Assembly (NCBI GenBank): GCA_963837955.1
Contig: CAWIPH010000002.1
Location: 3,069,175-3,133,174 of the forward strand
Reading direction: 5' to 3'
Source of the DNA: an uncultured Verrucomicrobiae bacterium
GTDB taxonomy: Bacteria > Verrucomicrobiota > Verrucomicrobiia > Chthoniobacterales > JAFAMB01
Length of the DNA stretch: 64,000 bases
How positions within the stretch are numbered: the stretch's first letter is position 1; each line of letters begins with the position of its first letter. The notes beneath the pieces were generated by a model. The model searched no databases. It saw only the letters and a list, made by a program, of their open reading frames with translations, and was not told the DNA's origin. A program made the translations under genes and the position numbers. Positions 3,719 to 40,557 of the stretch are shown one piece after another.

Positions 3719-4056
3719 GTCTTCAGCGGCGAAGCCGCGACTCAGGATAGCCTAGCCTGCAGGGCTAGGAATAGGCATATTTAAGATGGGCCAGCGCTGA
3801 AAGCGCGGCTCAATTGAAATAGCAGCGATACCGGCCTTTTGACGATGGTCGTACAAAGATATGACGCTCGCGGATTCGGTGTTTGCCACGCGCCTTCAGC
3901 GCTAGGACCGCTCTTTTGATTTTGTTCCTAGGGCTTCGCCCTCTAGGCTATCTTGAAACGCGGCTTCGCCGCTGAAGACCCGCGCTCCTCAATTTTGATC
4001 AAGCGAAGTCCGAAACCCTACAGGCTAGGCTATCCTGAATCACGGCTTCGCCGCTC
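3719..4056. repeat. REPIN-like inverted repeat element, family B
   Basis: CTTCAGCGGCGAAGCCGCGACTCAGGATAGCCTAG at ~3721 is inverted against CTAGGCTATCTTGAAACGCGGCTTCGCCGCTGAAG at ~3943, with a further copy at ~4025-4056. Confidence 0.8.
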
Positions 4057-6302: not shown

Positions 6303-7415
6303 ATGAATAAATATAACCAGAAAATATTGAGCAGTGGCGGCAACGAAGCAAGTGTGATGCAGCATGGCAATCGGGTCCTGAAGTTGGGACTGGATATGCA
6401 CTATCGGCAGGTGACGGTGGCGATGCAGGAGGATGGAGGCCGGATCAAGGCTGTGGGCAAGATGAGTCATCAGGCTTTTGGGAGTTGGGTGAACAAGAAG
6501 TTGGCTCAAGGCTGGCAGATTGAGAGCTGTTACGAAGCCGGAGCCAGCGGTTACTGGCTACATCGGCAGCTGGTAGAGCTGGGAGTCAAGAACCTGGTGG
6601 TTGTGCCCAAGGCGATGGGAAAGAGAGGCAAGCAGCAAAAGACCGATCGGCGCGATAGCGCAGAGTTGGTCGATTCGCTGGATCGTTATCTCAGAGGCCA
6701 GGATAAAGCCTTGAGTGTGGTGGCCGTACCCAGTGTTGAACAGGAACAGAAGCGAGCGCTGATCCGCTACCATCGCCAGATCATGGCCGATCGAGGACGC
6801 TCTGAGGCCCGAGGTAAAGGCTTACTGTGTGCCCAAGGGCTCGAAGTCGGAGGCCGCTGGTGGCAGGGCAAAGGGTGGAGAGAACTCAACTCTGATCCCC
6901 GGCTCAAAGAGTGGATCAAAGAGCAGCTAGAAGGCTGGCGCCAGAAGGTATTAAGCGCTGAGGAGCAGCAAAAAGGCTTGCGGCGACGGATCGAAGCGCT
7001 GGCTCCGGCGATCCTGCCCAAAGGAGTGGGCGCCTACAGCGCGGCGGTGTTGGAATACGAGATGAAGGGTTGGAGGCGATTTAACAATCGGCGCCAGGTG
7101 GCTAGCTATACGGGTTTATGTCCCGGCATCCATCTCAGTGATGGCCGAGGCAAAGAGGGGTCCATCAACCGTTGTGGCAATCGGATCGTGCGCTGGAGCT
7201 TGGTGGAGATGGTCTGGCGGCTGATGATCTGGCAGCCCCACTATGGGCCGGTGCGTCAGCTGGCGGCTGGCATAGTCAAAAGCAAGCGCGCCAAGAGACG
7301 CTTGGTAGTCAAAGCGGCCCGGCGTTTAGCCATTGATTTATGGCGTTTATCAAGCGGACAAACCACGGCCGAAAAACTGGGTTTAGTCCTGCAGACCAAT
7401 AGGCAGAGCCTCTGA
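6303..7415 (+). CDS. IS110-family DEDD recombinase/transposase
   Basis: LGLDMH, CYEAG and KTDRRDS (D-E-D-D) plus YTGLCPGIHLSDG with the conserved Ser; the start could be 6303 or 6357. Confidence 0.92.
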   Translation: MNKYNQKILSSGGNEASVMQHGNRVLKLGLDMHYRQVTVAMQEDGGRIKAVGKMSHQAFGSWVNKKLAQGWQIESCYEAGASGYWLHRQLVELGVKNLVVVPKAMGKRGKQQKTDRRDSAELVDSLDRYLRGQDKALSVVAVPSVEQEQKRALIRYHRQIMADRGRSEARGKGLLCAQGLEVGGRWWQGKGWRELNSDPRLKEWIKEQLEGWRQKVLSAEEQQKGLRRRIEALAPAILPKGVGAYSAAVLEYEMKGWRRFNNRRQVASYTGLCPGIHLSDGRGKEGSINRCGNRIVRWSLVEMVWRLMIWQPHYGPVRQLAAGIVKSKRAKRRLVVKAARRLAIDLWRLSSGQTTAEKLGLVLQTNRQSL

Positions 7416-30167: not shown

Positions 30168-30196
30168 TTGCATATATCGATGAATGGCGATATATA
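30168..30196 (+). promoter_or_regulatory. sigma70 promoter overlapped by a putative ArsR operator
   Basis: TTGCAT(30168)-N17-TATATA(30191); palindrome ATATATCG-N8-CGATATAT at 30172-30195; the GTG start is 6 nt after the -10, so the mRNA is probably leaderless. Confidence 0.75.
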
Positions 30197-30202
30197 AGAC
30201 CT

Positions 30203-30583
30203 GTGATCGAGCTTCTCGGCATTGCTAAAGTGCTTGGCGATCCAACTCGCGTTCGCGTTGTAGCCGTCTTGCGGCACGGAGAGCTTTGCGTGTGCGAGCT
30301 CGTGGACGCTTTAGGCATTAGCCAGTCTTCGCTGTCCAGTCATTTACAAATTTGTCGTCAGGCAGGAGTGCTGACCACGCGAAAGGAAAGTCGTTGGATT
30401 TACTACTCGCTCTCGACCCGCTACTCACAGCTGATTAAGTGCATCTTCACCGAGTTACAGCTTGGCAGCGACGAACAATTACGCCGAGACGCAAAGCGGC
30501 TCAAAAAGAGGCTGCAGCTGCGGGAAGGAGGCCGATGCGTCGTAGGATTCGGTCAACCGGAACTGGCAGATGTCCTCGACTAA
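30203..30583 (+). CDS. ArsR/SmtB metalloregulator with alpha3 ELCVCEL site
   Basis: LGDPTR, ELCVCEL, SQSSLSSHL and WIYYSL. Confidence 0.92.
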   Translation: MIELLGIAKVLGDPTRVRVVAVLRHGELCVCELVDALGISQSSLSSHLQICRQAGVLTTRKESRWIYYSLSTRYSQLIKCIFTELQLGSDEQLRRDAKRLKKRLQLREGGRCVVGFGQPELADVLD

Positions 30584-31808
30584 GATAGTTGTGCCAGAGC
30601 GTGCGGCTCCCGCTCTCCATGAAATCGAGCGGGGAATGCTGCTTCCTAAGTGTCGCAAGTGCGGTTGCATGAAGGAAGCCTTGGACGCCGCCAGGCGCAC
30701 CTTTCGGAACGCAGAGGAACCGGAAATCCGCGGTCTTCTTCCAACGATCGAAGGGCATGAGACCGCGATGGAGCCGATCGCTTATGATTGCATTGGCTGC
30801 AAAAAGTGTTGGGGTGCTGATGCAATTATTCAGCTGGCCAATCGTTTTGAGCAAGTCGCACTGAGCGAATGTTCTAACGATGGCAGCGACGGTGGTACCA
30901 AGCGTGAGCACATATCCACTACCACCAATGGGCCGCATGAGTGTTCTTGGCCACCTCATCCAGGTGAGTACATCGTTGGCAATCCCGCAGGCTCAATTGC
31001 GATCTGCACCCTCTCTAATAGGGAGCTGCCACAGAAGCTTATTGCTGTGGCAGGACCCGACCTAGCTATTGCTGGCCGATGCGACACGGAAAACATAGGT
31101 ATTGAGAAAGTGGTACTCAATGTGTTGGCAAACTCTCGGATTCGTTGGCTCATTCTTTGTGGAGTCGAGGCACCGGGACATCGGGCCGCAGATGCTTTCC
31201 TACGATTGAAGGAGCGAGGCGTTGATCCGAACATGCGAGTCCTGGAATCGGCTTCGTGGCGACCGATACTGAAAAACTTGACTTTGTTCGACGTGGCCAG
31301 ATTTCGGGAACAGATCGAACTGGTAAATTTGATTGGAGTAACAGCTGTCAGCAAAATCATCGAAGCTGCCAGCGAAGTTGCCAAGAAGCCCGCCCCGACA
31401 CTCAGTCTCCAGACACCGGACAGCTCCAATCAAATTGCATCTCGGGTTAAACGGTTAAAGGCTGCTGCCCCGAAAACCTTGCATCTCGACAAGGCCGGAT
31501 TTTTTGTTCTTCTCCCCCAAGCTGCGACCGGTGTGATTGTGTGTGAGCACTACGAGAATAGTGGCCGCCTGGCGCACGTGATCGAAGGATCTCAGGCCGC
31601 GCTAATCGCCGCGACGGTAATAGAGCGCGGACTGTTAACGCAGCTCGATCACGCAGCTTATCTCGGCCGTGAGTTGGCGAAAGCAGAAATTGCACTGAAG
31701 ACTGGCTCGCATTACGAACAAGATGCAGCCTTGGGCCTCCTGCCTTCGAAAAACAGTCAGCGTACTGAACGGTGCGAGGATTTGGACTGTTCTTGCCAAG
31801 AACCATAG
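30570..31808 (+). CDS. Cys-rich N-terminus + MtrA-like (corrinoid-binding) domain + DUF4346-like domain protein
   Basis: WPPHPGEYIVGNP and CDTENIGIEKVVLNVLANSRIRWLILCGVEAPGH match the MtrA signature; LDKAGFF...DHAAYLGRELAKAE..YEQD matches DUF4346; CRKCGC, CIGCKKC and C-terminal CSC. Confidence 0.8.
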   Translation: MSSTKIVVPERAAPALHEIERGMLLPKCRKCGCMKEALDAARRTFRNAEEPEIRGLLPTIEGHETAMEPIAYDCIGCKKCWGADAIIQLANRFEQVALSECSNDGSDGGTKREHISTTTNGPHECSWPPHPGEYIVGNPAGSIAICTLSNRELPQKLIAVAGPDLAIAGRCDTENIGIEKVVLNVLANSRIRWLILCGVEAPGHRAADAFLRLKERGVDPNMRVLESASWRPILKNLTLFDVARFREQIELVNLIGVTAVSKIIEAASEVAKKPAPTLSLQTPDSSNQIASRVKRLKAAAPKTLHLDKAGFFVLLPQAATGVIVCEHYENSGRLAHVIEGSQAALIAATVIERGLLTQLDHAAYLGRELAKAEIALKTGSHYEQDAALGLLPSKNSQRTERCEDLDCSCQEP

Positions 31809-31823
31809 CCTCCACCCCACGCC

Positions 31824-32225
31824 ATGAAGAAAGCAATCATCACACTGGTTACGACCGCAGCGAGCTTTCTGGCTCCCTGCGTTTATTCTCAACAAGCGAA
31901 CGACTCAACGGCTGGAGTTGGTCGTCATCCGACGACAGTTAATGATCTAGCGTCTGATCCATCCACTTATTTAGGGCAAGTTTCGGTAGTTGGCGTCGTG
32001 GCGGCCATTAATAGTGGTCAAGGCTTTACTATCGTTGATAAGCGTGAATATGCAGCTTGTGGTCTTTCTTGTTTTAGCGAACCTGATACTCGAAAGATCC
32101 CGGTACGTTGGAACGGAGCTCCTCCGAAACTTGAGCAAACGGTTCGTATAACCGGAGTCCTCGAAAAATCGGATCGCGGGCTGGTCTTTTCTGCCCAGAA
32201 CGTCTCGGAGGCTGCTAAGGAGTGA
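31824..32225 (+). CDS. secreted hypothetical protein, possible OB fold, with CxxxC
   Basis: Signal peptide; YLGQVSVVGVV..VRITGVL pattern; CGLSC. Confidence 0.65.
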   Translation: MKKAIITLVTTAASFLAPCVYSQQANDSTAGVGRHPTTVNDLASDPSTYLGQVSVVGVVAAINSGQGFTIVDKREYAACGLSCFSEPDTRKIPVRWNGAPPKLEQTVRITGVLEKSDRGLVFSAQNVSEAAKE

Positions 32226-32728
32226 AAAGCCAGCAACAAGAAAGCATTCCGCATCTCAACCGGCTATTGGGGACAGCAGCCTTCGTCGCGGTCTTCGTTG
32301 GTCACGTACTTTATCTACGCTACCTGACGAGCCCTTCGCAAAAGGATTGGGCGGACAATTTCAATCCTTGGGCCAATTTCTGGCAAAGCTATCTGTTCAG
32401 CCAAGACTATTTCGTAAGTTTTTCTTATGCGCTGAGTGCCAGCTTTGCTGTGTGGGCTACCGCACGTTTTTTGTACTTCCGCCGACAGGCAGCGGCCGTC
32501 GGAGCGCTTGGTGGGGTTAGCCTCGTCGCGTTGCTTCCGGCAGCAGGATGCTTTCTGGTCGGTTGCTGCGGCTCGCCGATGCTACCGATCTATATTAGTC
32601 TTTTCGGCTCGAAAGCTGCTGGAATAGGCAAGCCGCTCATGGCCTTACTAACTCTAGCCTCGATTGGCGTGGGTTACCTTTACCTCCGGAGACGATCAGC
32701 GTGCAACTGCACTAATCCGGCCGGTTAG
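32222..32728 (+). CDS. membrane protein with a vicinal Cys pair
   Basis: About four hydrophobic segments; GCFLVGCCGSP and C-terminal CNC; GTGA overlap with the upstream gene. Confidence 0.7.
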   Translation: MKSQQQESIPHLNRLLGTAAFVAVFVGHVLYLRYLTSPSQKDWADNFNPWANFWQSYLFSQDYFVSFSYALSASFAVWATARFLYFRRQAAAVGALGGVSLVALLPAAGCFLVGCCGSPMLPIYISLFGSKAAGIGKPLMALLTLASIGVGYLYLRRRSACNCTNPAG

Positions 32729-32772: not shown

Positions 32773-32994
32773 TCACTCAGCTGCGCAGCATGTGCGATTC
32801 TCTCCCTGCATTGGTGGACACTTCACCGAACCGTAGGAGCAGAAGACGCAGCAATCACCCGGTTTGGGGCGTAGTAGCGTCTTACAACTGTTGCATTCGT
32901 AGAAGAATTGGCACGCGTCAGTCGGCATCGTTTCGCGTTTAGCGAAACCGCAGACCGGGCACACGAGCACGGATTCAAGAAGAACGTTGCTCAT
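32773..32994 (-). CDS. GDCCVxC domain protein
   Basis: CPVCG, MPTDACQFFYEC and PGDCCVFCSYGSVKCPP. Confidence 0.9.
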   Translation of the reverse strand: MSNVLLESVLVCPVCGFAKRETMPTDACQFFYECNSCKTLLRPKPGDCCVFCSYGSVKCPPMQGENRTCCAAE

Positions 32995-33002
32995 TACCGA
33001 AT

Positions 33003-33296
33003 TCAGTTGTGCAGAGTGGAAGGATAACCTGCATCGGAAGTCGCTTTGCTAAGTGCAGCCGGGCTGGCTTTCTCCGGGTCAAAGGTAACACTGGCAGTTT
33101 TTTGGTCGAAATCCACCCTGGCGGTGGTCACGCCCGGCACTTTCTCGAGTGCTTTCTTAACAGTGATCGGACAAACCGCGCAGGTCATATTGTGCACGTC
33201 CAGAGTAATGGTTTGTAAGGTTCCAGCGAATAGGCTGAAAGGGAGGGCGACGCCGGCGGCGCTCAGCAGGACGAAACGGTTCATAAGCAATTTCAT
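33003..33296 (-). CDS. merP: periplasmic mercury-binding protein MerP
   Basis: Signal peptide; MTCAVCPITVKKAL and DAGYPS. Confidence 0.92.
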   Translation of the reverse strand: MKLLMNRFVLLSAAGVALPFSLFAGTLQTITLDVHNMTCAVCPITVKKALEKVPGVTTARVDFDQKTASVTFDPEKASPAALSKATSDAGYPSTLHN

Positions 33297-33676
33297 AGCG
33301 AATAAAATAGAGGGGCGATCCAGGGTACGGCGATCAGACCAAAAACTAGAACCGTAACGATCCAGAACGCTAAGCGCTGGCGTTTCAACGTGCGCGGATT
33401 GGCACAGGCCGATCCGGGTAGACAGATTCGAGGTGCCAAATAGAGACTATAAAACGCGAAGGCAACAAACAGCAGCGTTAGTCCGATGAAAATTGGCCGA
33501 TAAGGTTCGAGCGCAGTTAGAGAGCTGATCCAGGCCCCGCTTACCCCGAGCGTAAGCAAAACCAGCGGACCGAGGCAGCATAGTGATGCTCCAAGTGCCG
33601 CAAATATCCCAGCCACCAGGAAGGCGTAACCGCTTCGGGTAGCAGACTTCTTCAGTTCAGAAACTGATGGTTTCAT
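33293..33676 (-). CDS. merT: mercuric transport protein MerT
   Basis: ASLCCLGPLVLLTLGVSGAWI, LEPYRP and CLPGSAC loop. Confidence 0.92.
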   Translation of the reverse strand: MKPSVSELKKSATRSGYAFLVAGIFAALGASLCCLGPLVLLTLGVSGAWISSLTALEPYRPIFIGLTLLFVAFAFYSLYLAPRICLPGSACANPRTLKRQRLAFWIVTVLVFGLIAVPWIAPLFYSL

Positions 33677-34432
33677 TCAGCTTTGAGCAGGAGATTTTAT
33701 CGCGCAGCAGTCTGGCGTAGCTGTTTTAGTTTTCGCTCCATCGTCGTCGTCGACTTGCGGGCGAATACCCTTTGCGAAGGCTTCCTGCAAGGCAACGACC
33801 CCCCTTTCGTCGAGACTCTCATGTGCGACTACCGACAGCTCTTCGGCGATCTGCTCTTTCTTACATCCTGGATCTGAATCGTTAAGGTTGCCAATGAATC
33901 GGCGCTCGAAAACGTTCGCCAAGCCGGTCTCCAAGGCTTTGGCTTTTTCTTCCGGCAACGCGATCTTCGTCTGAATCCGGCGAACCAGTCTTGCGGCAAT
34001 AGTCCGGGCCTCCAGCTTACTGAGGCTGTCTACTTCAGCGCCGCGGTACCAGGCATTGCGGGAAACGAAACTCTGTAGTTCGGTCTCACGACCTTCGCCG
34101 TCCAATTCCCGAGCCGTTGCCCCATTCTTTTCCACGACGGATTGAACAGCTTTGTTCCGCGACTCTCGACTGGATCCCTCACTCCCGACAACGGCTAACA
34201 CTGTTCCCGAGCCGTTCAGCCAGGCCTCCATGATGATGGGCTCACCCTCCAATTCCAGCAAAATTGGCTTGGAACGGCTGCCGCAACCGATCGCCGGCGC
34301 TGCCTCACATCTCAACGGCACTTCGAATAGACTGATGCGGTCTGCCTCGACCGCGATTTTGGTCCCTTCGCCGAAAACCGACGAGACGCCCAGCAAACTT
34401 ACCAGCGCCGTTGTTACTATCGTTTGTTTCAT
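33677..34432 (-). CDS. secreted hypothetical protein with CxxxxxxxC and C-terminal CC; first gene of the mer operon
   Basis: Start reassigned to MKQTIV, downstream of the MerR promoter; CEAAPAIGCGS and PDCC. Confidence 0.7.
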   Translation of the reverse strand: MKQTIVTTALVSLLGVSSVFGEGTKIAVEADRISLFEVPLRCEAAPAIGCGSRSKPILLELEGEPIIMEAWLNGSGTVLAVVGSEGSSRESRNKAVQSVVEKNGATARELDGEGRETELQSFVSRNAWYRGAEVDSLSKLEARTIAARLVRRIQTKIALPEEKAKALETGLANVFERRFIGNLNDSDPGCKKEQIAEELSVVAHESLDERGVVALQEAFAKGIRPQVDDDDGAKTKTATPDCCAIKSPAQS

Positions 34433-34454
34433 AGGATGAATTTGTCGATGACCC

Positions 34455-34486
34455 ATGCTACGCTCCGTACTCGGGTACGGTGTCAA
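34455..34486 (-). promoter_or_regulatory. MerR-type promoter/operator
   Basis: TTGACA-CCGTACCCGAGTACGGAGCG-TAGCAT: 20-bp spacer carrying the classical CCGTAC-N4-GTACGG mer dyad. Confidence 0.92.
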
Positions 34487-34875
34487 CGGCTATTTGATTC
34501 AGTGAGCGATTCGATGACCGGACACGGCTGATAGCCTTTACGTTTTGCGCATTGTTCGAGAGTCTTAGTCAGGACTGACTCGATCCGTTGAAGCTGGCCG
34601 AGTTTTTCCTGAACCAAGTTCAGCTTTTCCGCCGCAAGTTTTTGAACCTGCTCGCAATCGGCACTCGAGAGCTCCAGCAGCGCGCGGATATCGTCAAGCG
34701 AGAATCCTAGCTGCTGAGCACGACGGATGAAACGCACTCTTTGCAAATCTTCAGCGCCGTAGGAGCGTGTCCCTCCATAAGGCTTCTGCGGAAGCTCGAG
34801 CAGCCCGATCCGCTGATAGTATCGGATAGTCTCGACGCTCACGCCGACCGATCTCGCAAGTTGGCCAATTCGCAT
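34483..34875 (-). CDS. merR: Hg(II)-responsive regulator MerR
   Basis: VETIRYYQRIGL and LGFSLDDI; three Cys in the MerR positions (DC..., QC, PCPVIESL). Confidence 0.88.
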   Translation of the reverse strand: MRIGQLARSVGVSVETIRYYQRIGLLELPQKPYGGTRSYGAEDLQRVRFIRRAQQLGFSLDDIRALLELSSADCEQVQKLAAEKLNLVQEKLGQLQRIESVLTKTLEQCAKRKGYQPCPVIESLTESNSR

Positions 34876-34957: not shown

Positions 34958-35569
34958 TCAATACGTTGGGAGCCGAAAGGCGCCGGTTTTCATTAAGATG
35001 AGGACCCCTAGCCCAATCAGTACGAAAGGGACCACGCGGTGGGCATGATGGCGAATGGGTGCGCCCAGAGCCCGATGACTCACGAGCCAGTGAGCAGCGA
35101 GACACCAGAGACCGGTCATAACCGCGAACACGATCACCATTGCGGACACCTCATGACCGTTCCGGGTGGCAAAAAGAGCGGTATAGACTGCCAGGTTATC
35201 TCCGCCGTTCGCCATCGTCACCGCCGCTACTGCCAAGCTTTTGCCGAATGCTCCGGTGCCGGAAACGGGTTGCAAATCCTCTTTCTTGTTCTCCTTTCCG
35301 CGCCATAGGTTGGACAGTTTTTTGGCTCCAATCGCAATCGGAATAAGGCCAAGCAGACCGATGTATGCCGGGGGAATTACTAGCGAAATCAGCGCTGCGA
35401 TGGCACTCACTGCACAAAGCGCGCTAACACCGGCATACTGGCCGATAACGACATCGCGTACGCGGAAGCTTTTATCGGCCAAGAAGCCAACCAGAACGAA
35501 CGCGTCGTCGATATTTGTCGACGCGAAGACGACGATAGCAAGGCCGATGAGGCTAAGAGCTGATTCCAT
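34958..35569 (-). CDS. cadmium resistance transporter CadD family
   Basis: STNIDD, VIGQY and ANGGDNLAVY. Confidence 0.88.
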   Translation of the reverse strand: MESALSLIGLAIVVFASTNIDDAFVLVGFLADKSFRVRDVVIGQYAGVSALCAVSAIAALISLVIPPAYIGLLGLIPIAIGAKKLSNLWRGKENKKEDLQPVSGTGAFGKSLAVAAVTMANGGDNLAVYTALFATRNGHEVSAMVIVFAVMTGLWCLAAHWLVSHRALGAPIRHHAHRVVPFVLIGLGVLILMKTGAFRLPTY

Positions 35570-37148: not shown

Positions 37149-38003
37149 ATGAGCCGAACAATCTGGCTAGGCGCCGTCGCGTACGATCCGAAGGTGGTCA
37201 CGATCTGGGAAGGCATGCGACGCTACTTTCACGAAGAGGCGCGCCTGTCAGTAGAGGTCGTGCTGTTTCAGAGTTACGAGGCGCAGGTAAGCGCCCTGCT
37301 GGCCGCGCCGAGCGATCCCAGCCCGCGAATTGACATCGCCTGGAATACAAACCTTGCGTATCTACAGGCCGACGCGTGGAGCGACCATCGCTGCCGGGCG
37401 ATCGCGATGCGTGATACCGATATTGCCTGGACGACCAAGATCGTCGCGGTCAACGGAGGTCCAGTCGCTGCGCTTGCCGATCTTGGAAATCGAACCTTGG
37501 CGCTCGGCAGCCGCGACAGTGGCCACGCCGCGATCCTCCCGGTTCATTTTCTGGAGCGCGAAGGCTTGGTCGAGGGGCAGCACTACCGCGCGTTGCGTTT
37601 CGATAGCGACGTCGGCAAGCATGGAGACACTGGTACGAGCGAGGTCGAGGTCGTCCGCGCGGTCCTCGACGGCCGCGCCGATGCCGGCGCAATCGGCAGT
37701 CCGTTCTGGAGGAGAGTGCGCAGCGAGCGCTTGGTGCCGGAGGGCGCACTAACCGAGATCTGGACGTCGCCGCCCTACAATCACTGCATGTTCACTGCTC
37801 GACCCGATCTAGACCCTTCATTGGAGCAACGGTTCGCCGAAGCCCTGTCCGGAATGAGCTACGACAACCCGAGCCACCGCGCCGTGCTCGATGCTGAGGG
37901 GCTCCGGCGCTGGGAGCCGCCGCACCTCGATGGGTACGACTCTCTGCGGCAGGCGTCCGCACAACAGGGTTTCTTCAAGCGCCCGATGCCGACAGAGGCG
38001 TGA
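37149..38003 (+). CDS. PhnD-like solute-binding-fold protein without signal peptide (Rv1680-like)
   Basis: GAVAYDPKVVTIW, DIAWN, AMRDTD, VGKHGDTG and HCMFT. Confidence 0.75.
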   Translation: MSRTIWLGAVAYDPKVVTIWEGMRRYFHEEARLSVEVVLFQSYEAQVSALLAAPSDPSPRIDIAWNTNLAYLQADAWSDHRCRAIAMRDTDIAWTTKIVAVNGGPVAALADLGNRTLALGSRDSGHAAILPVHFLEREGLVEGQHYRALRFDSDVGKHGDTGTSEVEVVRAVLDGRADAGAIGSPFWRRVRSERLVPEGALTEIWTSPPYNHCMFTARPDLDPSLEQRFAEALSGMSYDNPSHRAVLDAEGLRRWEPPHLDGYDSLRQASAQQGFFKRPMPTEA

Positions 38004-38036
38004 ATTCACGTTTGAGCCTCCTTCTCTCGTCAGCTG

Positions 38037-39071
38037 TCACGCGCAATTGAAGATCGTTGCCAATCGGCGCCGATGCTCGCTTTCGCGCTCGAAGGCGCGA
38101 CGTATCGCAGCGAAGGACTCGGCGAGCGGAAAGATGTTGGGGGTGATCAGCAGATCGGCGTCCTCGGCTCCTACTGGATGCCAGTAGACGCCCTGCGCTG
38201 TTATAGTGACCTCAGGCACCAAATCAGCGCGTGCAAGTGCGACGCCCTCCGTGGCAGAACCCCGCAGTGCAACGCGGCGGATCACCCGGTCCTCCTCGCT
38301 AATCCGCTTTTCATCGAGAAAGCGACTGAACTCCTCGGCCTCGTGGTCAGTGGAGACGGTCGCTGCCAATCGCACCCGGAACCCTTCCGCGCGAGCGTGC
38401 TCAATACCTTTCCATGCACGCACCCATGTGCCCTTTCCACGATGGCGGTCGTGCCGTTCGGGCGTCGGACTGTCGAGGCTGATCTGCAACGTCAAGCGAT
38501 CGCTCGGCAATGAACGGAGCGTTTGAAGCCGCCGCCCCTCGAGCAGCATACCGTTGGTGAGGACCGTCGTCGGCGCGGTGGCGGCGCACGCAGCCAGGAT
38601 GTCGCCGATGTCCGCAAGCAGAAAGGGTTCGCCGCCGGTCACGAAGATTTCGCTGACGCCGAGTTCGGCCGCTTCGCTGGCGATTCGTTGCACACGCACG
38701 AGGCCAAGCTCCCGCCGCGGTACTTTGGGCGAGGAGCGCACGCAACAATAGTCGCAATGCAGGTTGCAGTCGAAATTCGTGTAGAGCCAAAGGCGCGAGC
38801 CGACAGGGCGATCGGCGTCGGCATTCGCTGGAGCCTCCCCGCACCGGATCACCCACCGCGTGCGGCCCGCCTCGACAGTCCTTTCGACCAAGGTGTTGCG
38901 CGTAAAGCGGCACCAAGCCTCAAGGTCGGCCCCGAGACCCCCTTCGCTGCTAATGACGGCCAGGAGATCGCCCGGGCTACATCGGCGCAGTGCAGCAATT
39001 AGTTCGGGCAGCAGGCCGGTGGCAAACGATTTAACGCCGGCGTCGAGCTCAATGTTCGCTTTGATTCGCAT
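38037..39071 (-). CDS. radical SAM enzyme with an N-terminal TusA/SirA-like domain (Rv1681-like)
   Basis: CNLHCDYC, TGGEPF, LTNG and QISLD; N-terminal LDA..GDLL..DLEAWC pattern. Confidence 0.85.
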   Translation of the reverse strand: MRIKANIELDAGVKSFATGLLPELIAALRRCSPGDLLAVISSEGGLGADLEAWCRFTRNTLVERTVEAGRTRWVIRCGEAPANADADRPVGSRLWLYTNFDCNLHCDYCCVRSSPKVPRRELGLVRVQRIASEAAELGVSEIFVTGGEPFLLADIGDILAACAATAPTTVLTNGMLLEGRRLQTLRSLPSDRLTLQISLDSPTPERHDRHRGKGTWVRAWKGIEHARAEGFRVRLAATVSTDHEAEEFSRFLDEKRISEEDRVIRRVALRGSATEGVALARADLVPEVTITAQGVYWHPVGAEDADLLITPNIFPLAESFAAIRRAFERESEHRRRLATIFNCA

Positions 39072-39074
39072 ACG

Positions 39075-39914
39075 CTATTGGCTCACGATCCGCCAAGCTT
39101 TCGACCGGCCTTGGTTCATCCACGCGCTTAAACGCATAAGCCTAAGGCGGCTTCCATCGAAATCAAATCCCGGCGCCTGCTGTTCCGTAGCGGTCAGCGA
39201 AGGTCCGAAGATAAGAAAGTAGTCAGCGCCGTCAGGCTTCACGAAATTGTAGTCCGCGGCCAGCACAAAGCCCGCCCTTTCGACCTCCCCGATTACCACA
39301 TCGCGATTCACTCCGTGATCATCACCCTGGCCGTTGCGATCGATGATTCCCAGGCGGGCCCCAGGACGCATGGCAGCACGGACGTGCCGCAACAGCACGA
39401 TGGGCTGCGCTACTTCATGGTAGGTTTTCATGAGGAGCACTGCGTCGACGCTATTGGGAGGGAGCAGAGGGTCATCGCTCTTGCCCAAGATGGTGCGGAT
39501 ATTGGGCAGCTTCTCCTTTTGGGCGCGATCACGGATGTAATCGAGATAGGACCGGTTGATGTCGACGGCATAGACCCGACCGCTGCTTCCGACCCGGCGT
39601 GCTGCACGCACGCTGAACCAACCCGAACCGGCACCGATGTCGGCAACCGAGGACCCGGTGTGTATCCGCAGCAAGTCCATGACCCTGTTGACCTGCAGAT
39701 TCTTATCTCGTTTGGGGTCCTCAAAAACCGACAGGTCCCCTGTGTAAGGCTGGCTGGTGGGTCGGTGGATGATATCGGTGCTTCGCAGCTGGACAGCCTG
39801 TGACGGAATGGATTCGACTGGCGACTTTGTGAATCCAGCCGATGGGACGGCAAGAAGAACGAATAATAAAGCAACCCGGCGAATGCGAGAGAATGGTTGA
39901 GCCGAACTTAGCAT
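39075..39914 (-). CDS. class I SAM-dependent methyltransferase, probably exported
   Basis: VADIGAGSG, VYAVDI and YHE..PGARLGII; N-terminal signal-like segment. Confidence 0.88.
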   Translation of the reverse strand: MLSSAQPFSRIRRVALLFVLLAVPSAGFTKSPVESIPSQAVQLRSTDIIHRPTSQPYTGDLSVFEDPKRDKNLQVNRVMDLLRIHTGSSVADIGAGSGWFSVRAARRVGSSGRVYAVDINRSYLDYIRDRAQKEKLPNIRTILGKSDDPLLPPNSVDAVLLMKTYHEVAQPIVLLRHVRAAMRPGARLGIIDRNGQGDDHGVNRDVVIGEVERAGFVLAADYNFVKPDGADYFLIFGPSLTATEQQAPGFDFDGSRLRLMRLSAWMNQGRSKAWRIVSQ

Positions 39915-39918
39915 GGAA

Positions 39919-40557
39919 TTACGACAAGAGTCGCACTAGGCGGCCCCATAAACCGCGGTCGGAAGACTCCTGCTCGTGTCGCAGCAGGATAGCATCCAAG
40001 CCCAAACTGCGTCCCGGTCGTTGAACCAGGAGCATGATCTGGACAACAATAAGGAAGAAGTATGTCCAAGGCCACTCCGCGGGAGAACGATAAAGGCCCA
40101 GCCAAAGATTGATGGCCATCAGTGCTCCTAAGAAAGCTCCCAACCGGCTGAATAGTCCAAGGATCAGAGTGACGGCTATCAACACCTCTGAGAAGTAGAC
40201 TTGTGGTGCGAAGAAGTAGAAATGCGGCAGCACTACGTCCTTCACAAAGTGCCGCTGCAGCCCAGTACTGGCCCATTTCGCCATTTCGTCCATCCAGTAG
40301 CGCAGACCGCCGGAGCCGTCAGGGTTATCAGTGTAAGTCGGGGGGAGCTTCCACAAGGACTGCTGCCACCACAACGCCCCGATAAAGAATCGGGCCAGCC
40401 AATTCCACAGGTGTAGAACCGAGCGCTGGCTTGAGTCGCGGAGAAGATTGACTCCTGCAATCACTATGCAAGCAATCACCAGCACCCAAAAAACATAGCT
40501 CGTCCACTCACCCTGAGTAAGGAACTCCAGCGCGTCGGAAAATGGATTTGTTCTCAT
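39919..40557 (-). CDS. DoxX/DoxD-like membrane protein
   Basis: RFFIGALWW..WK, E..I..LILGLFSR, EWPWTY and LGLD. Confidence 0.75.
   Translation of the reverse strand: MRTNPFSDALEFLTQGEWTSYVFWVLVIACIVIAGVNLLRDSSQRSVLHLWNWLARFFIGALWWQQSLWKLPPTYTDNPDGSGGLRYWMDEMAKWASTGLQRHFVKDVVLPHFYFFAPQVYFSEVLIAVTLILGLFSRLGAFLGALMAINLWLGLYRSPAEWPWTYFFLIVVQIMLLVQRPGRSLGLDAILLRHEQESSDRGLWGRLVRLLS

Follow-up and report, generated by a model that had tools for sequence, protein, structure and literature searches.

The 64-kb stretch of DNA analysed here (the window) comes from an uncultured Verrucomicrobiae bacterium, and the genome records closest to it are also uncultured Verrucomicrobiae. It contains a four-gene operon in which arsR, encoding an ArsR/SmtB repressor, is followed by genes for a 412-residue protein with an MtrA-type domain (the core protein), a 133-residue protein and a 168-residue membrane protein. 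In the best-supported reading, the locus is an operon of the detoxification type that responds to metal and encodes a putative new enzyme together with putative new relay proteins. An initial annotation of the DNA had described four tightly coupled genes with a 14-nt overlap, a 15-nt gap and a GTGA overlap, and the coordinates of the open reading frames (ORFs) agree with it; its interpretation of the locus is borne out in part. The features of the operon are listed below, with positions counted along the window.

30172-30195, strand-neutral: operator-like dyad, ATATATCG-N8-CGATATAT, unique in the window and kept in relatives
30203-30583, plus strand: arsR, ArsR/SmtB repressor of 126 residues, GTG start (PF01022, NF033788)
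30570-31808, plus strand: ORF of the 412-residue protein, overlapping arsR by 14 nt
30570..30866, plus strand: its N-terminal helical six-Cys domain, residues 1-99 (C28, C31, C33, C74, C77, C80)
30945..31391, plus strand: its MtrA-type Rossmann domain, putatively corrinoid-binding, residues 126-274 (PF04208; E174, H204)
31485..31724, plus strand: its DUF4346 domain, residues 306-385 (PF14251)
31773..31796, plus strand: its C-terminal Cys tail (C402, C407, C409), read from the sequence
31824-32225, plus strand: ORF of the 133-residue protein, 15 nt after the previous ORF
32222-32728, plus strand: ORF of the 168-residue protein, with a four-base GTGA overlap with the previous ORF

The core protein and its selenocysteine variants

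The core protein had been described as MtrA-like with a DUF4346-like C-terminus, and both assignments hold. PF04208 (MtrA) matches residues 126-274 with an E value of 1e-35 (123.4 bits against a cut-off of 25), and phmmer aligns the same residues to the solved MtrA chains 5L8X and 5LAA with an E value of 2.5e-27. The AlphaFold2 (AF2) model of the full protein has a predicted local distance difference test (pLDDT) score of 87.5. When this predicted model was compared by Foldseek with 5LAA and 5L8X, template modelling (TM) scores of 0.83-0.89, a root-mean-square deviation of 1.6-2.7 Å and 35-39% identity were obtained; with 9QTR included, the E values are 4e-14 to 2e-12 and the target TM scores 0.62-0.89. 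Wagner et al. 2016 (PMC4915002) state that His84 of MtrA ligates cobalt and that Glu54 hydrogen-bonds to His84; they also note homologues of MtrA in bacteria, most of which keep His84. In the core protein, H204 and E174 align to His84 and Glu54 with the 30-residue spacing, and neither residue varies among the 38 aligned homologues, whose identities go down to 29%. The cobalt-ligand His is thus retained together with its Glu partner, as had been claimed. The MtrA signature motifs reported earlier are present as well, with one correction, as WP..GEY should read WP...GEY (WPPHPGEYIVG); the other motifs are CDTENIGIEK and IRWLILCGVEAPGH. The meander, with the consensus GAIPF-Y/F-x-EN, reads S-W-R-P-I-L-K-N here, and only P232 and N236 are at least 90% conserved in the family. 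From the sequence and the model together we infer that the MtrA-type domain binds a corrinoid.

The core protein does not qualify as subunit A of the Mtr complex. The NCBIfam MtrA equivalogs fall below their cut-offs (TIGR01111, 116.5 against 249.15 bits; NF002128, 304.8 against 568 bits), and the MtrA domain is followed by DUF4346 and not by a helix anchor. Databases nevertheless label the protein tetrahydromethanopterin S-methyltransferase subunit A. The DUF4346 match is strong (PF14251, E 4.2e-21, 75.9 bits against 29.6), and six polar residues in this domain, D307, E326, H361, Y364, E368 and Q384, are invariant in the 38-sequence alignment. A Cys-rich C-terminal tail is found in 15 of the 38 aligned homologues, as counted from alignment blocks.

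The N-terminal domain contains the motifs C28-x2-C31-x-C33 and C74-x2-C77-x2-C80, the second of which reads C-x-G-C-x2-C-x-P when written in full. All six cysteines are invariant in 68 of 68 sequences. Folded alone, the domain was modelled by AF2 with a pLDDT of 91.7 and a predicted TM score (pTM) of 0.84, and the model had no match among Protein Data Bank folds at E <= 0.001. Sequence comparison with solved structures gave weak ferredoxin-motif matches (E 0.06-0.3) and designed-helix matches only, and a search of the ESM Atlas gave no usable match. We take it to be a new domain. The Cys motifs that had been listed for the proteins of the operon (ELCVCEL, CxxCxC, CxxCxxC, CxC, CxxxC and CxxxxCC) are all found in the translations.

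Variation at one of these cysteines is informative. At five Firmicutes loci (L017, L036, L039, L049 and L081) an in-frame TGA stands exactly at the column of the invariant Cys74. SelB is found above the curated cut-off in all five genomes, and a hairpin with a GGUC loop and a 5-bp stem lies 17-31 nt past the TGA; it appears in the minimum free energy fold in three of the five and can be drawn in all five. It is probable that this TGA encodes selenocysteine (Sec) in the Firmicutes, whose TGA type forms one clade in a quick maximum likelihood (ML) tree of the family. The hallmarks of a bacterial selenoprotein (TGA at a Cys column, SelB and the hairpin) are found for the Firmicutes members; the window protein has a cysteine at this position. 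The Cys/Sec pair at this position would mean that the thiol or selenol is reactive, either in binding metal or in redox cycling, and it argues against a purely structural role for Cys74. A second candidate Sec site was seen in a Cys-rich linker between the N-terminal and MtrA domains, where C-D-C-G-G-T-TGA-G-T occurs in a Dethiobacter metagenome-assembled genome (MAG) and a Chloroflexota MAG (L058, about position 7301, and L083, about position 508).

The regulator, the partner proteins and their genomic setting

The regulator is matched by PF01022 (HTH_5) with 52.3 bits against a cut-off of 22 and by NF033788 with 89.4 bits against 55. Its closest solved structures are SmtB, HlyU, BigR and CadC, and NmtR is also among its solved relatives. 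It has a C-V-C motif in alpha3 (ELCVCEL) and a C-terminal GGRC cysteine, and the first Cys of C-V-C is at least 90% conserved in 36 regulators that adjoin the 412-residue gene family. Three distinct Cys-rich ArsR subtypes adjoin the core gene in different lineages. Among 35 ArsR-cluster ORFs beside the core gene at other loci, 10 belong to the window subtype with C-V-C and a C-terminal G(R/K)C, 12 combine an N-terminal C-x3-C with C-V-C, which we take to be the CadC arrangement, and 9 are without C-V-C and have a C-terminal DPCV...G(L/W)CL; the remaining 4 are of other kinds. An NCBIfam scan of the 36 regulators returned generic ArsR/SmtB models only and no metal-specific equivalog. The initial annotation pointed to the sensing of As(III)/Sb(III) by alpha3 ArsRs. 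ELCVCEL is not an As(III)-specific motif; CadC-type sensors of Cd, Pb and Zn carry it too. The site of R773 ArsR has a third Cys, which the window regulator (CVCELV) lacks. The Cys motifs suggest that the inducer is probably thiophilic, and the genomic context favours the Hg/Cd/Pb/Zn class over As/Sb.

With up to two mismatches allowed, the dyad upstream of arsR is the window's sole match to ATATATCG-N8-CGATATAT, and none of 100 shuffled sequences matched. In related Verrucomicrobiae it also lies upstream of arsR, exact in L003 and L009, degraded in L004 and L007, and in a longer form, TATATCGGTA-AA-TACCGATATA, in L010. It has been retained although the neighbouring verrucomicrobial ArsR proteins are only 55-80% identical. 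A TTGCAT hexamer resembling a -35 element (30168-30173) and a -10 region rich in A and T both overlap the dyad, and a by-eye comparison indicates that TTGCAT/TTGATA at its left arm is conserved; a strict sigma-70 scanner called no plus-strand promoter at the dyad. Of the earlier statement that a dyad covers the promoter, the unique and conserved dyad is borne out and the promoter is not called by the strict scan. At the level of sequence, this predicted operator is an inverted repeat over the repressor's own presumed promoter, as looked for in ArsR/SmtB systems. The GTG start of arsR lies about 8 nt past the dyad and its -10-like region, an earlier in-frame start is absent, and L003 and L009 have the same layout. 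Because arsR begins so close to the dyad, the mRNA of the operon may be leaderless. A different conserved box, TGCAACTATGCA or close variants, occurs 20-60 nt upstream of the module's arsR at five loci from several non-verrucomicrobial phyla (L021, L024, L048, L057 and L071) and may be the operator of the ArsR subtype found there.

The 133-residue protein has a hydrophobic N-terminus, with a lipobox-like Cys in relatives, and is predicted to be secreted or lipoprotein-like. Its Cys pair is C79-x3-C83 (ACGLSC), and 90% or more of the 14 sequences compared keep C79. Both members that were scanned gave sub-threshold matches to oligonucleotide/oligosaccharide-binding (OB) folds (E 0.05-0.07), and the protein is possibly an OB fold. 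In the 168-residue membrane protein, H28 and C110-x4-C115-C116-G-S-P are invariant in 17 of 17 sequences; the protein also has a GCFLVGCC stretch and a C-terminal Cys cluster, C-N-C. Neither protein belongs to a Pfam or NCBIfam family, and the ESM Atlas clusters nearest to the 168-residue protein are all unnamed. Fusions tie these proteins to the core protein. Eighteen of 150 listed core-protein representatives are at least 440 residues long, and 11 of the 18 carry a partner domain in the same polypeptide: the 168-residue membrane protein in five (N-terminal in four and C-terminal in one), the 133-residue type at the C-terminus in three, a thioredoxin-like protein at the C-terminus in two and ArsR at the N-terminus in one. 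Since both orientations of the membrane-protein fusion exist, both ends of the 168-residue protein are predicted to face the cytoplasm, which would bury C110-x4-C115-C116-G-S-P in the membrane and expose the terminal Cys cluster to the cytoplasm. A complex prediction for the 412- and 168-residue proteins gave a score of 0.00 (mark 0.32).

The order arsR, core gene, 133-residue gene and 168-residue gene is kept in all five full-length loci of the relatives, down to 47-62% identity, and also in many phyla, so the four-gene arrangement is conserved, as anticipated. The core gene is accessory, with a match in 6 of 41 related genomes, 5 of them full length. Metagenomes contain more than 1000 near relatives. 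In a library clustered at 90% identity, 1076 matches were found among the scored candidates, and the best 120, at 68-97% identity, are labelled MtrA by JGI. In the 50% library, a threshold of E <= 0.001 is reached by 1303 representatives, and 152 reach E <= 1e-30. Among species-representative genomes, at least 583 of 600 candidate stretches encode a relative of the core protein. Cultured carriers include Chryseobacterium aquaticum subsp. greenlandense, Dechloromonas hortensis, Dechloromonas sp. ARDL1 and Sedimentibacter saalensis. A plasmid collection held four matching records with uninformative context. No publication on the MtrA/DUF4346 family was found in the literature, supplementary files not being covered.

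Neighbourhoods were counted at the best 80 species-level loci from ORFs within 5 kb of the core gene. The ORFs were called by a crude greedy longest-ORF method, clustered and named by Pfam and NCBIfam, and the neighbourhoods were then rescanned with hidden Markov models of the clusters and with tblastn. Two kinds of Cys-containing partner pair were found, referred to as type A (the 133- and 168-residue proteins) and type B (a CcdA-like membrane protein and a thioredoxin-like protein).

ArsR-family gene within 7 kb: 45/80 loci
ArsR directly upstream on the same strand: 31/80 loci (30/72 loci with upstream room)
168-residue membrane protein: 23/80 loci
133-residue protein: 21/80 loci
DsbD_TM/CcdA-like membrane protein: 12/80 loci
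138-residue signal-anchored thioredoxin-like protein: 11/80 loci
Type A partner pair: 25/80 loci
Type B partner pair: 16/80 loci
Types A and B together: 0/80 loci
ZntA/CadA-type P1B ATPase: 13/80 loci
CzcA/CusA resistance-nodulation-division (RND) pump: 9/80 loci
Cation diffusion facilitator (CDF): 10/80 loci
DUF302: 4/80 loci
At least one metal-resistance gene: 31/80 loci
mer-specific genes: 6/80 loci
No ArsR, partner or metal gene: 20/80 loci

A Cys-containing membrane or periplasmic partner of either type is present at 41 of the 80 loci. In type B, the CcdA-like protein matches PF02683 (DsbD_TM, E 4e-16) and has vicinal NPCC and GCC pairs, and the thioredoxin-like protein gave sub-threshold thioredoxin-like matches in all three members scanned. 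Partner types A and B change at least eight times each on the quick ML tree, and Verrucomicrobiota appear at three places in it. These changes and placements are what one would expect of repeated transfer in which the associations were kept up and did not stem from a single inheritance.

The linkage of homologues to ars and mer genes had been put forward as a check, and the outcome is divided: metal-resistance genes and mer genes are linked to the core gene, and arsenic genes are rare. Heavy-metal genes outnumber arsenic genes across the 80 loci. Among 85 further operon members, the first 25 of 77 Pfam families include MerC (2), CusB/HlyD (2), S-adenosylmethionine (SAM) methyltransferases (2), ArsP (1) and SBF/Acr3 (1). 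Two cultured strains illustrate the association with mercury resistance. Downstream of the module, Chryseobacterium carries arsR2-merTP-merP-merA, whose MerA scores 514.7 bits (cut-off 454), and in D. hortensis it is divergent from a classical merR-TPCA operon (MerA 1091 bits on PRK13748).

In the window, too, a mer-type operon lacking merA lies directly downstream of the module and convergent to it. The initial annotation had missed this merR-orf269-merT-merP-GDCCVxC operon and the cadD gene beside it. A CadD homologue also adjoins the second module copy in the same-genus genome L007.

32773..34875, minus strand: convergent mer-type operon, merA absent
34483-34875, minus strand: MerR (TIGR02051, 149.7 bits, just under the cut-off of 150.85)
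33677-34486, minus strand: orf269, a secreted Cys protein of 269 residues between merR and merT
33293-33676, minus strand: MerT (PF02411, 118.5 bits)
33003-33296, minus strand: MerP (TIGR02052, 100.9 bits against 92.55)
32773-32994, minus strand: GDCCVxC protein (NF041374, 107.7 bits against 40)
34958..35569, minus strand: CadD-family cadmium resistance transporter (PF03596, 82.3 bits against 26.2)

The orf269 product has a C-x7-C pair and a C-terminal DCC and belongs to no Pfam or NCBIfam family. The source genome, which is 95% complete in two contigs, has a single MerT, the copy in the window, and no MerA above the cut-off. MerA ends at its C-terminus in a vicinal Cys pair, and none of the six best genomic MerA candidates does so. 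The MerB search says nothing on the presence of MerB, as its control was unmatched everywhere. MerT occurs in 11 of the 41 related genomes and true MerA in 1 of 41; mercury-transport operons without merA seem to be the rule in this verrucomicrobial family. The genome has four B12-binding domains, one of them within a 1245-residue open frame, which we take to be of methionine-synthase size.

Elsewhere in the window, at 37149-40557, is a four-gene cluster consisting of an Rv1680-family protein resembling substrate-binding proteins (37149-38003, plus strand), an Rv1681-family radical SAM protein (38037-39071, minus strand, 476.8 bits against 380), a SAM methyltransferase (39075-39914, minus strand) and a DoxX/DoxD-like membrane protein (39919-40557, minus strand). 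An Acido-Lenti-1 small RNA (RF01687) lies at 3725-3769 on the minus strand (38.4 bits against a gathering score of 37).

Proposed function and alternatives

What might such a set of proteins do? We tentatively prefer a reading that is possible, though somewhat short of probable: in a metal-stress module, exchange between thiols would carry a thiophilic metal to a corrinoid enzyme in the cytoplasm. The module would be an accessory to heavy-metal resistance islands and would be switched on under metal stress, when a thiophilic metal or metalloid releases the ArsR/SmtB repressor from the dyad over the promoter. The 133-residue Cys-pair protein would capture metal species outside the cytoplasmic membrane and hand them by thiol ligand exchange, following the logic of MerP and MerT, to the 168-residue membrane protein with its intramembrane C-x4-CC and cytoplasmic Cys tail. 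The membrane protein would in turn deliver the metal to the cytoplasmic 412-residue protein, where the Cys site of the N-terminal domain (Sec in some species) and the Cys tail could hold it beside the corrinoid of the MtrA domain. The corrinoid might then act through Co(I) redox chemistry or through Co-C chemistry, in which a methyl group is given to the metal or taken from it. The metal is likely of the Hg/Cd/Pb/Zn class and possibly an organometal. Along with corrinoid binding, we infer the metal relay, the identity of the metal and the role of cobalt from these features; methyl transfer by the module would be pure conjecture.

Several observations weigh against this reading. The 133- and 168-residue proteins have no detectable homology to MerP (HMA) or MerT (PF02411), neither in Pfam at E <= 5 nor in NCBIfam. 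The alternative partner pair comes from CcdA/DsbD-like and thioredoxin-like families, which normally move electrons and not metals, and C74-x2-C77-x2-C80 also resembles a ferredoxin cluster motif. Twenty loci are without ArsR, partner or metal genes. They include a clade of Nitrospirota and Deferribacterota (L019, L028, L032, L033, L037, L042 and L052) whose copy of the three-domain gene stands directly before parA-parB with no ArsR or metal genes nearby, a misfit for a metal model; the parAB type forms a single clade on the tree. The methyl-transfer system proposed earlier finds no support in the gene content, as no MtrH, MT1, MT2 or reductive activase is among the recurrent neighbour clusters, nor does one occur in the first 25 of the 77 Pfam families to which the 85 additional operon members gave matches. 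The window contains no other mtr subunits, as had been noted, and MtrH is absent from the whole genome, in a search whose control was positive in two methanogens. CobS was not found in the genome, so a corrinoid would need to be imported. The earlier emphasis on As and Sb is weakened too, with one ArsP-type and one Acr3-type (SBF) protein in the same listed families. The module was also considered as a replacement for the missing MerA. As a general role this was rejected, as seven MerT-positive relatives are without the module and two cultured strains carry both the module and MerA.

A thiol-redox relay is the strongest competitor, although we consider it unlikely. Here the 412-residue protein, with its CxxC or UxxC, perhaps an Fe-S cluster and a corrinoid redox centre, would send reducing equivalents by way of the membrane protein to the Cys protein of the periplasm, so that envelope thiols are kept reduced or are repaired during metal stress, and no metal would be transported. 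The type B partners are of the DsbD_TM/CcdA type and thioredoxin-like, they are mutually exclusive with type A (25 and 16 loci, no overlap), and a Cys/Sec pair in C-x2-C is typical of redox proteins. However, the thioredoxin-like partner has one Cys or C-G-C and no CxxC, and the vicinal NPCC and GCC pairs of the CcdA-like partner are unlike CcdA, which has a single Cys per half. The Cys-rich tails on both cytoplasmic ends resemble metal-binding tails, and thiol relays are not known to use a corrinoid.

Sequestration or chaperoning without catalysis, which we hold to be slightly less likely still, would make the module a Cys-rich buffer for thiophilic metal in the cytoplasm, in which MtrA/DUF4346 serves as a scaffold or the corrinoid as a sensor or structural ligand. 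The many Cys clusters and tails, the absence of transferase partners among the recurrent neighbours and the neighbouring efflux pumps, which could take over bound metal, are consistent with such a role. The His/Glu pair and the polar residues of DUF4346 are invariant across phyla, however, which better fits a catalytic or cofactor site, and selenocysteine would be costly for a mere buffer.

A bolder reading would have aerobic bacteria of soil and water use the module to form or cleave metal-carbon bonds, as a second corrinoid route that depends on neither HgcAB nor MerB. We regard this as decidedly doubtful. The methyl group of methylmercury could be moved onto Co(I) and then into one-carbon metabolism, which would amount to the 'oxidative' demethylation without mer that has long been sought. 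The other possibility is a methylation of Hg, Pb, Cd or As under oxic conditions. In either direction the Cys/Sec N-terminal domain would hold the metal over the cobalt.

Cobalt or corrinoid homeostasis is quite improbable. In that case an ArsR-type sensor of Co, Ni or Zn would control a protein for the storage, protection or remodelling of B12 at high levels of competing metals. The corrinoid-type domain, the Co/Ni sensors such as NmtR within the ArsR/SmtB family, a genome without CobS that must import its corrinoid, and the ability of CDF and CzcA transporters to export Co would all agree with it. Nevertheless, no B12 transport or biosynthesis gene recurs beside the core gene, and an Rfam scan found no riboswitch near the operon and no cobalamin riboswitch in the window. 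The core gene is linked to mer genes, and all three regulator subtypes are Cys-rich, which points to soft metals rather than Co or Ni.

That the core protein is an ordinary one-carbon or housekeeping corrinoid protein with metal genes adjacent by chance, as its database name, the 20 of 80 loci without metal context and the one clade heading parAB operons might suggest, is hardly credible given that only 6 of 41 relatives carry the gene, that ArsR (45/80), Cys partners (41/80) and metal genes (31/80) recur beside it, that it is fused to ArsR and to partners, that MtrH is absent and that the NCBIfam MtrA equivalogs score far below their cut-offs.

The family is large, unstudied and routinely mislabelled as a methanogenesis subunit, and bacteria of soil, groundwater and sediment carry the module within heavy-metal islands. 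With it, a B12-type domain, two unnamed families of Cys proteins and probable selenocysteine variants enter the field of metal resistance. Provided that it acts on metals, the module would represent a new enzyme class for the mercury, cadmium or lead cycles, and the question of who methylates or demethylates mercury without hgcAB and merB becomes testable, since cultured carriers exist. Cobalt chemistry on a metal, if true, would be a categorically new system. Should the module prove to be a redox relay, no earlier relay of this kind would have had a corrinoid protein at its core. How do the merA-less mer operons of this verrucomicrobial family avoid poisoning their own cells?

Comparison with known systems

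Three-component corrinoid methyltransferase systems consist of MT1, a corrinoid protein and MT2, together with an activase, and none of these partners is seen among the recurrent neighbour clusters of the core gene or in the first 25 of 77 families of further operon members. Corrinoid iron-sulfur proteins and B12/Fe-S reductases, namely AcsC of the corrinoid iron-sulfur protein, QueG and the reductive dehalogenases, offer a different parallel, in that a Cys cluster beside a corrinoid domain could deliver electrons or take part in reductive activation. They have no significant sequence or fold match to the 412-residue protein, and selenocysteine is not known as a natural Fe-S ligand, in contrast to the probable Sec variants of the N-terminal domain.

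The Rossmann-type fold is shared with methanogen MtrA and its cytoplasmic homologues (PF04208; 5LAA, 5L8X, 8Q3V and 9QTQ), as are the equivalents of His84 and Glu54, H204 and E174. The cytoplasmic MtrA homologues are likewise without a membrane anchor. Unlike MtrA, the 412-residue protein is flanked by a six-Cys N-terminal domain, DUF4346 and a Cys tail, and its meander is only partly kept. Unlike MtrA of the Mtr complex, it is without MtrB-H, is ArsR-regulated and is spread over many bacterial phyla.

HgcB has a C-terminal Cys tail. HgcAB resembles the module in this tail and in its corrinoid protein, its Cys-rich and possibly Fe-S parts and its membrane component. According to a preprint (bioRxiv 10.1101/2022.10.17.512643), an ArsR-like regulator is often found upstream of hgcAB. 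The fold and family of the core protein are unrelated to those of HgcA, as had been proposed, with no match to PF03599 (CdhD/HgcA) in the 412-residue protein or in the genome. The module also differs from HgcAB in sitting in resistance islands and in being found in aerobes such as Chryseobacterium and in soil Verrucomicrobiae.

The mer relay of MerP, MerT and MerA shares the layout of the module. In each, a regulator that responds to metal is combined with a Cys-pair protein in the periplasm, a small membrane protein that has cytoplasmic Cys and a vicinal CC within the membrane, and an enzyme in the cytoplasm that is extended at both termini by Cys-rich appendages. The regulator of the module is of the ArsR type and not the MerR type, and its enzyme is of the corrinoid type and not a flavin disulfide reductase. 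The module adjoins mer genes in the window and at 6 of the 80 loci.

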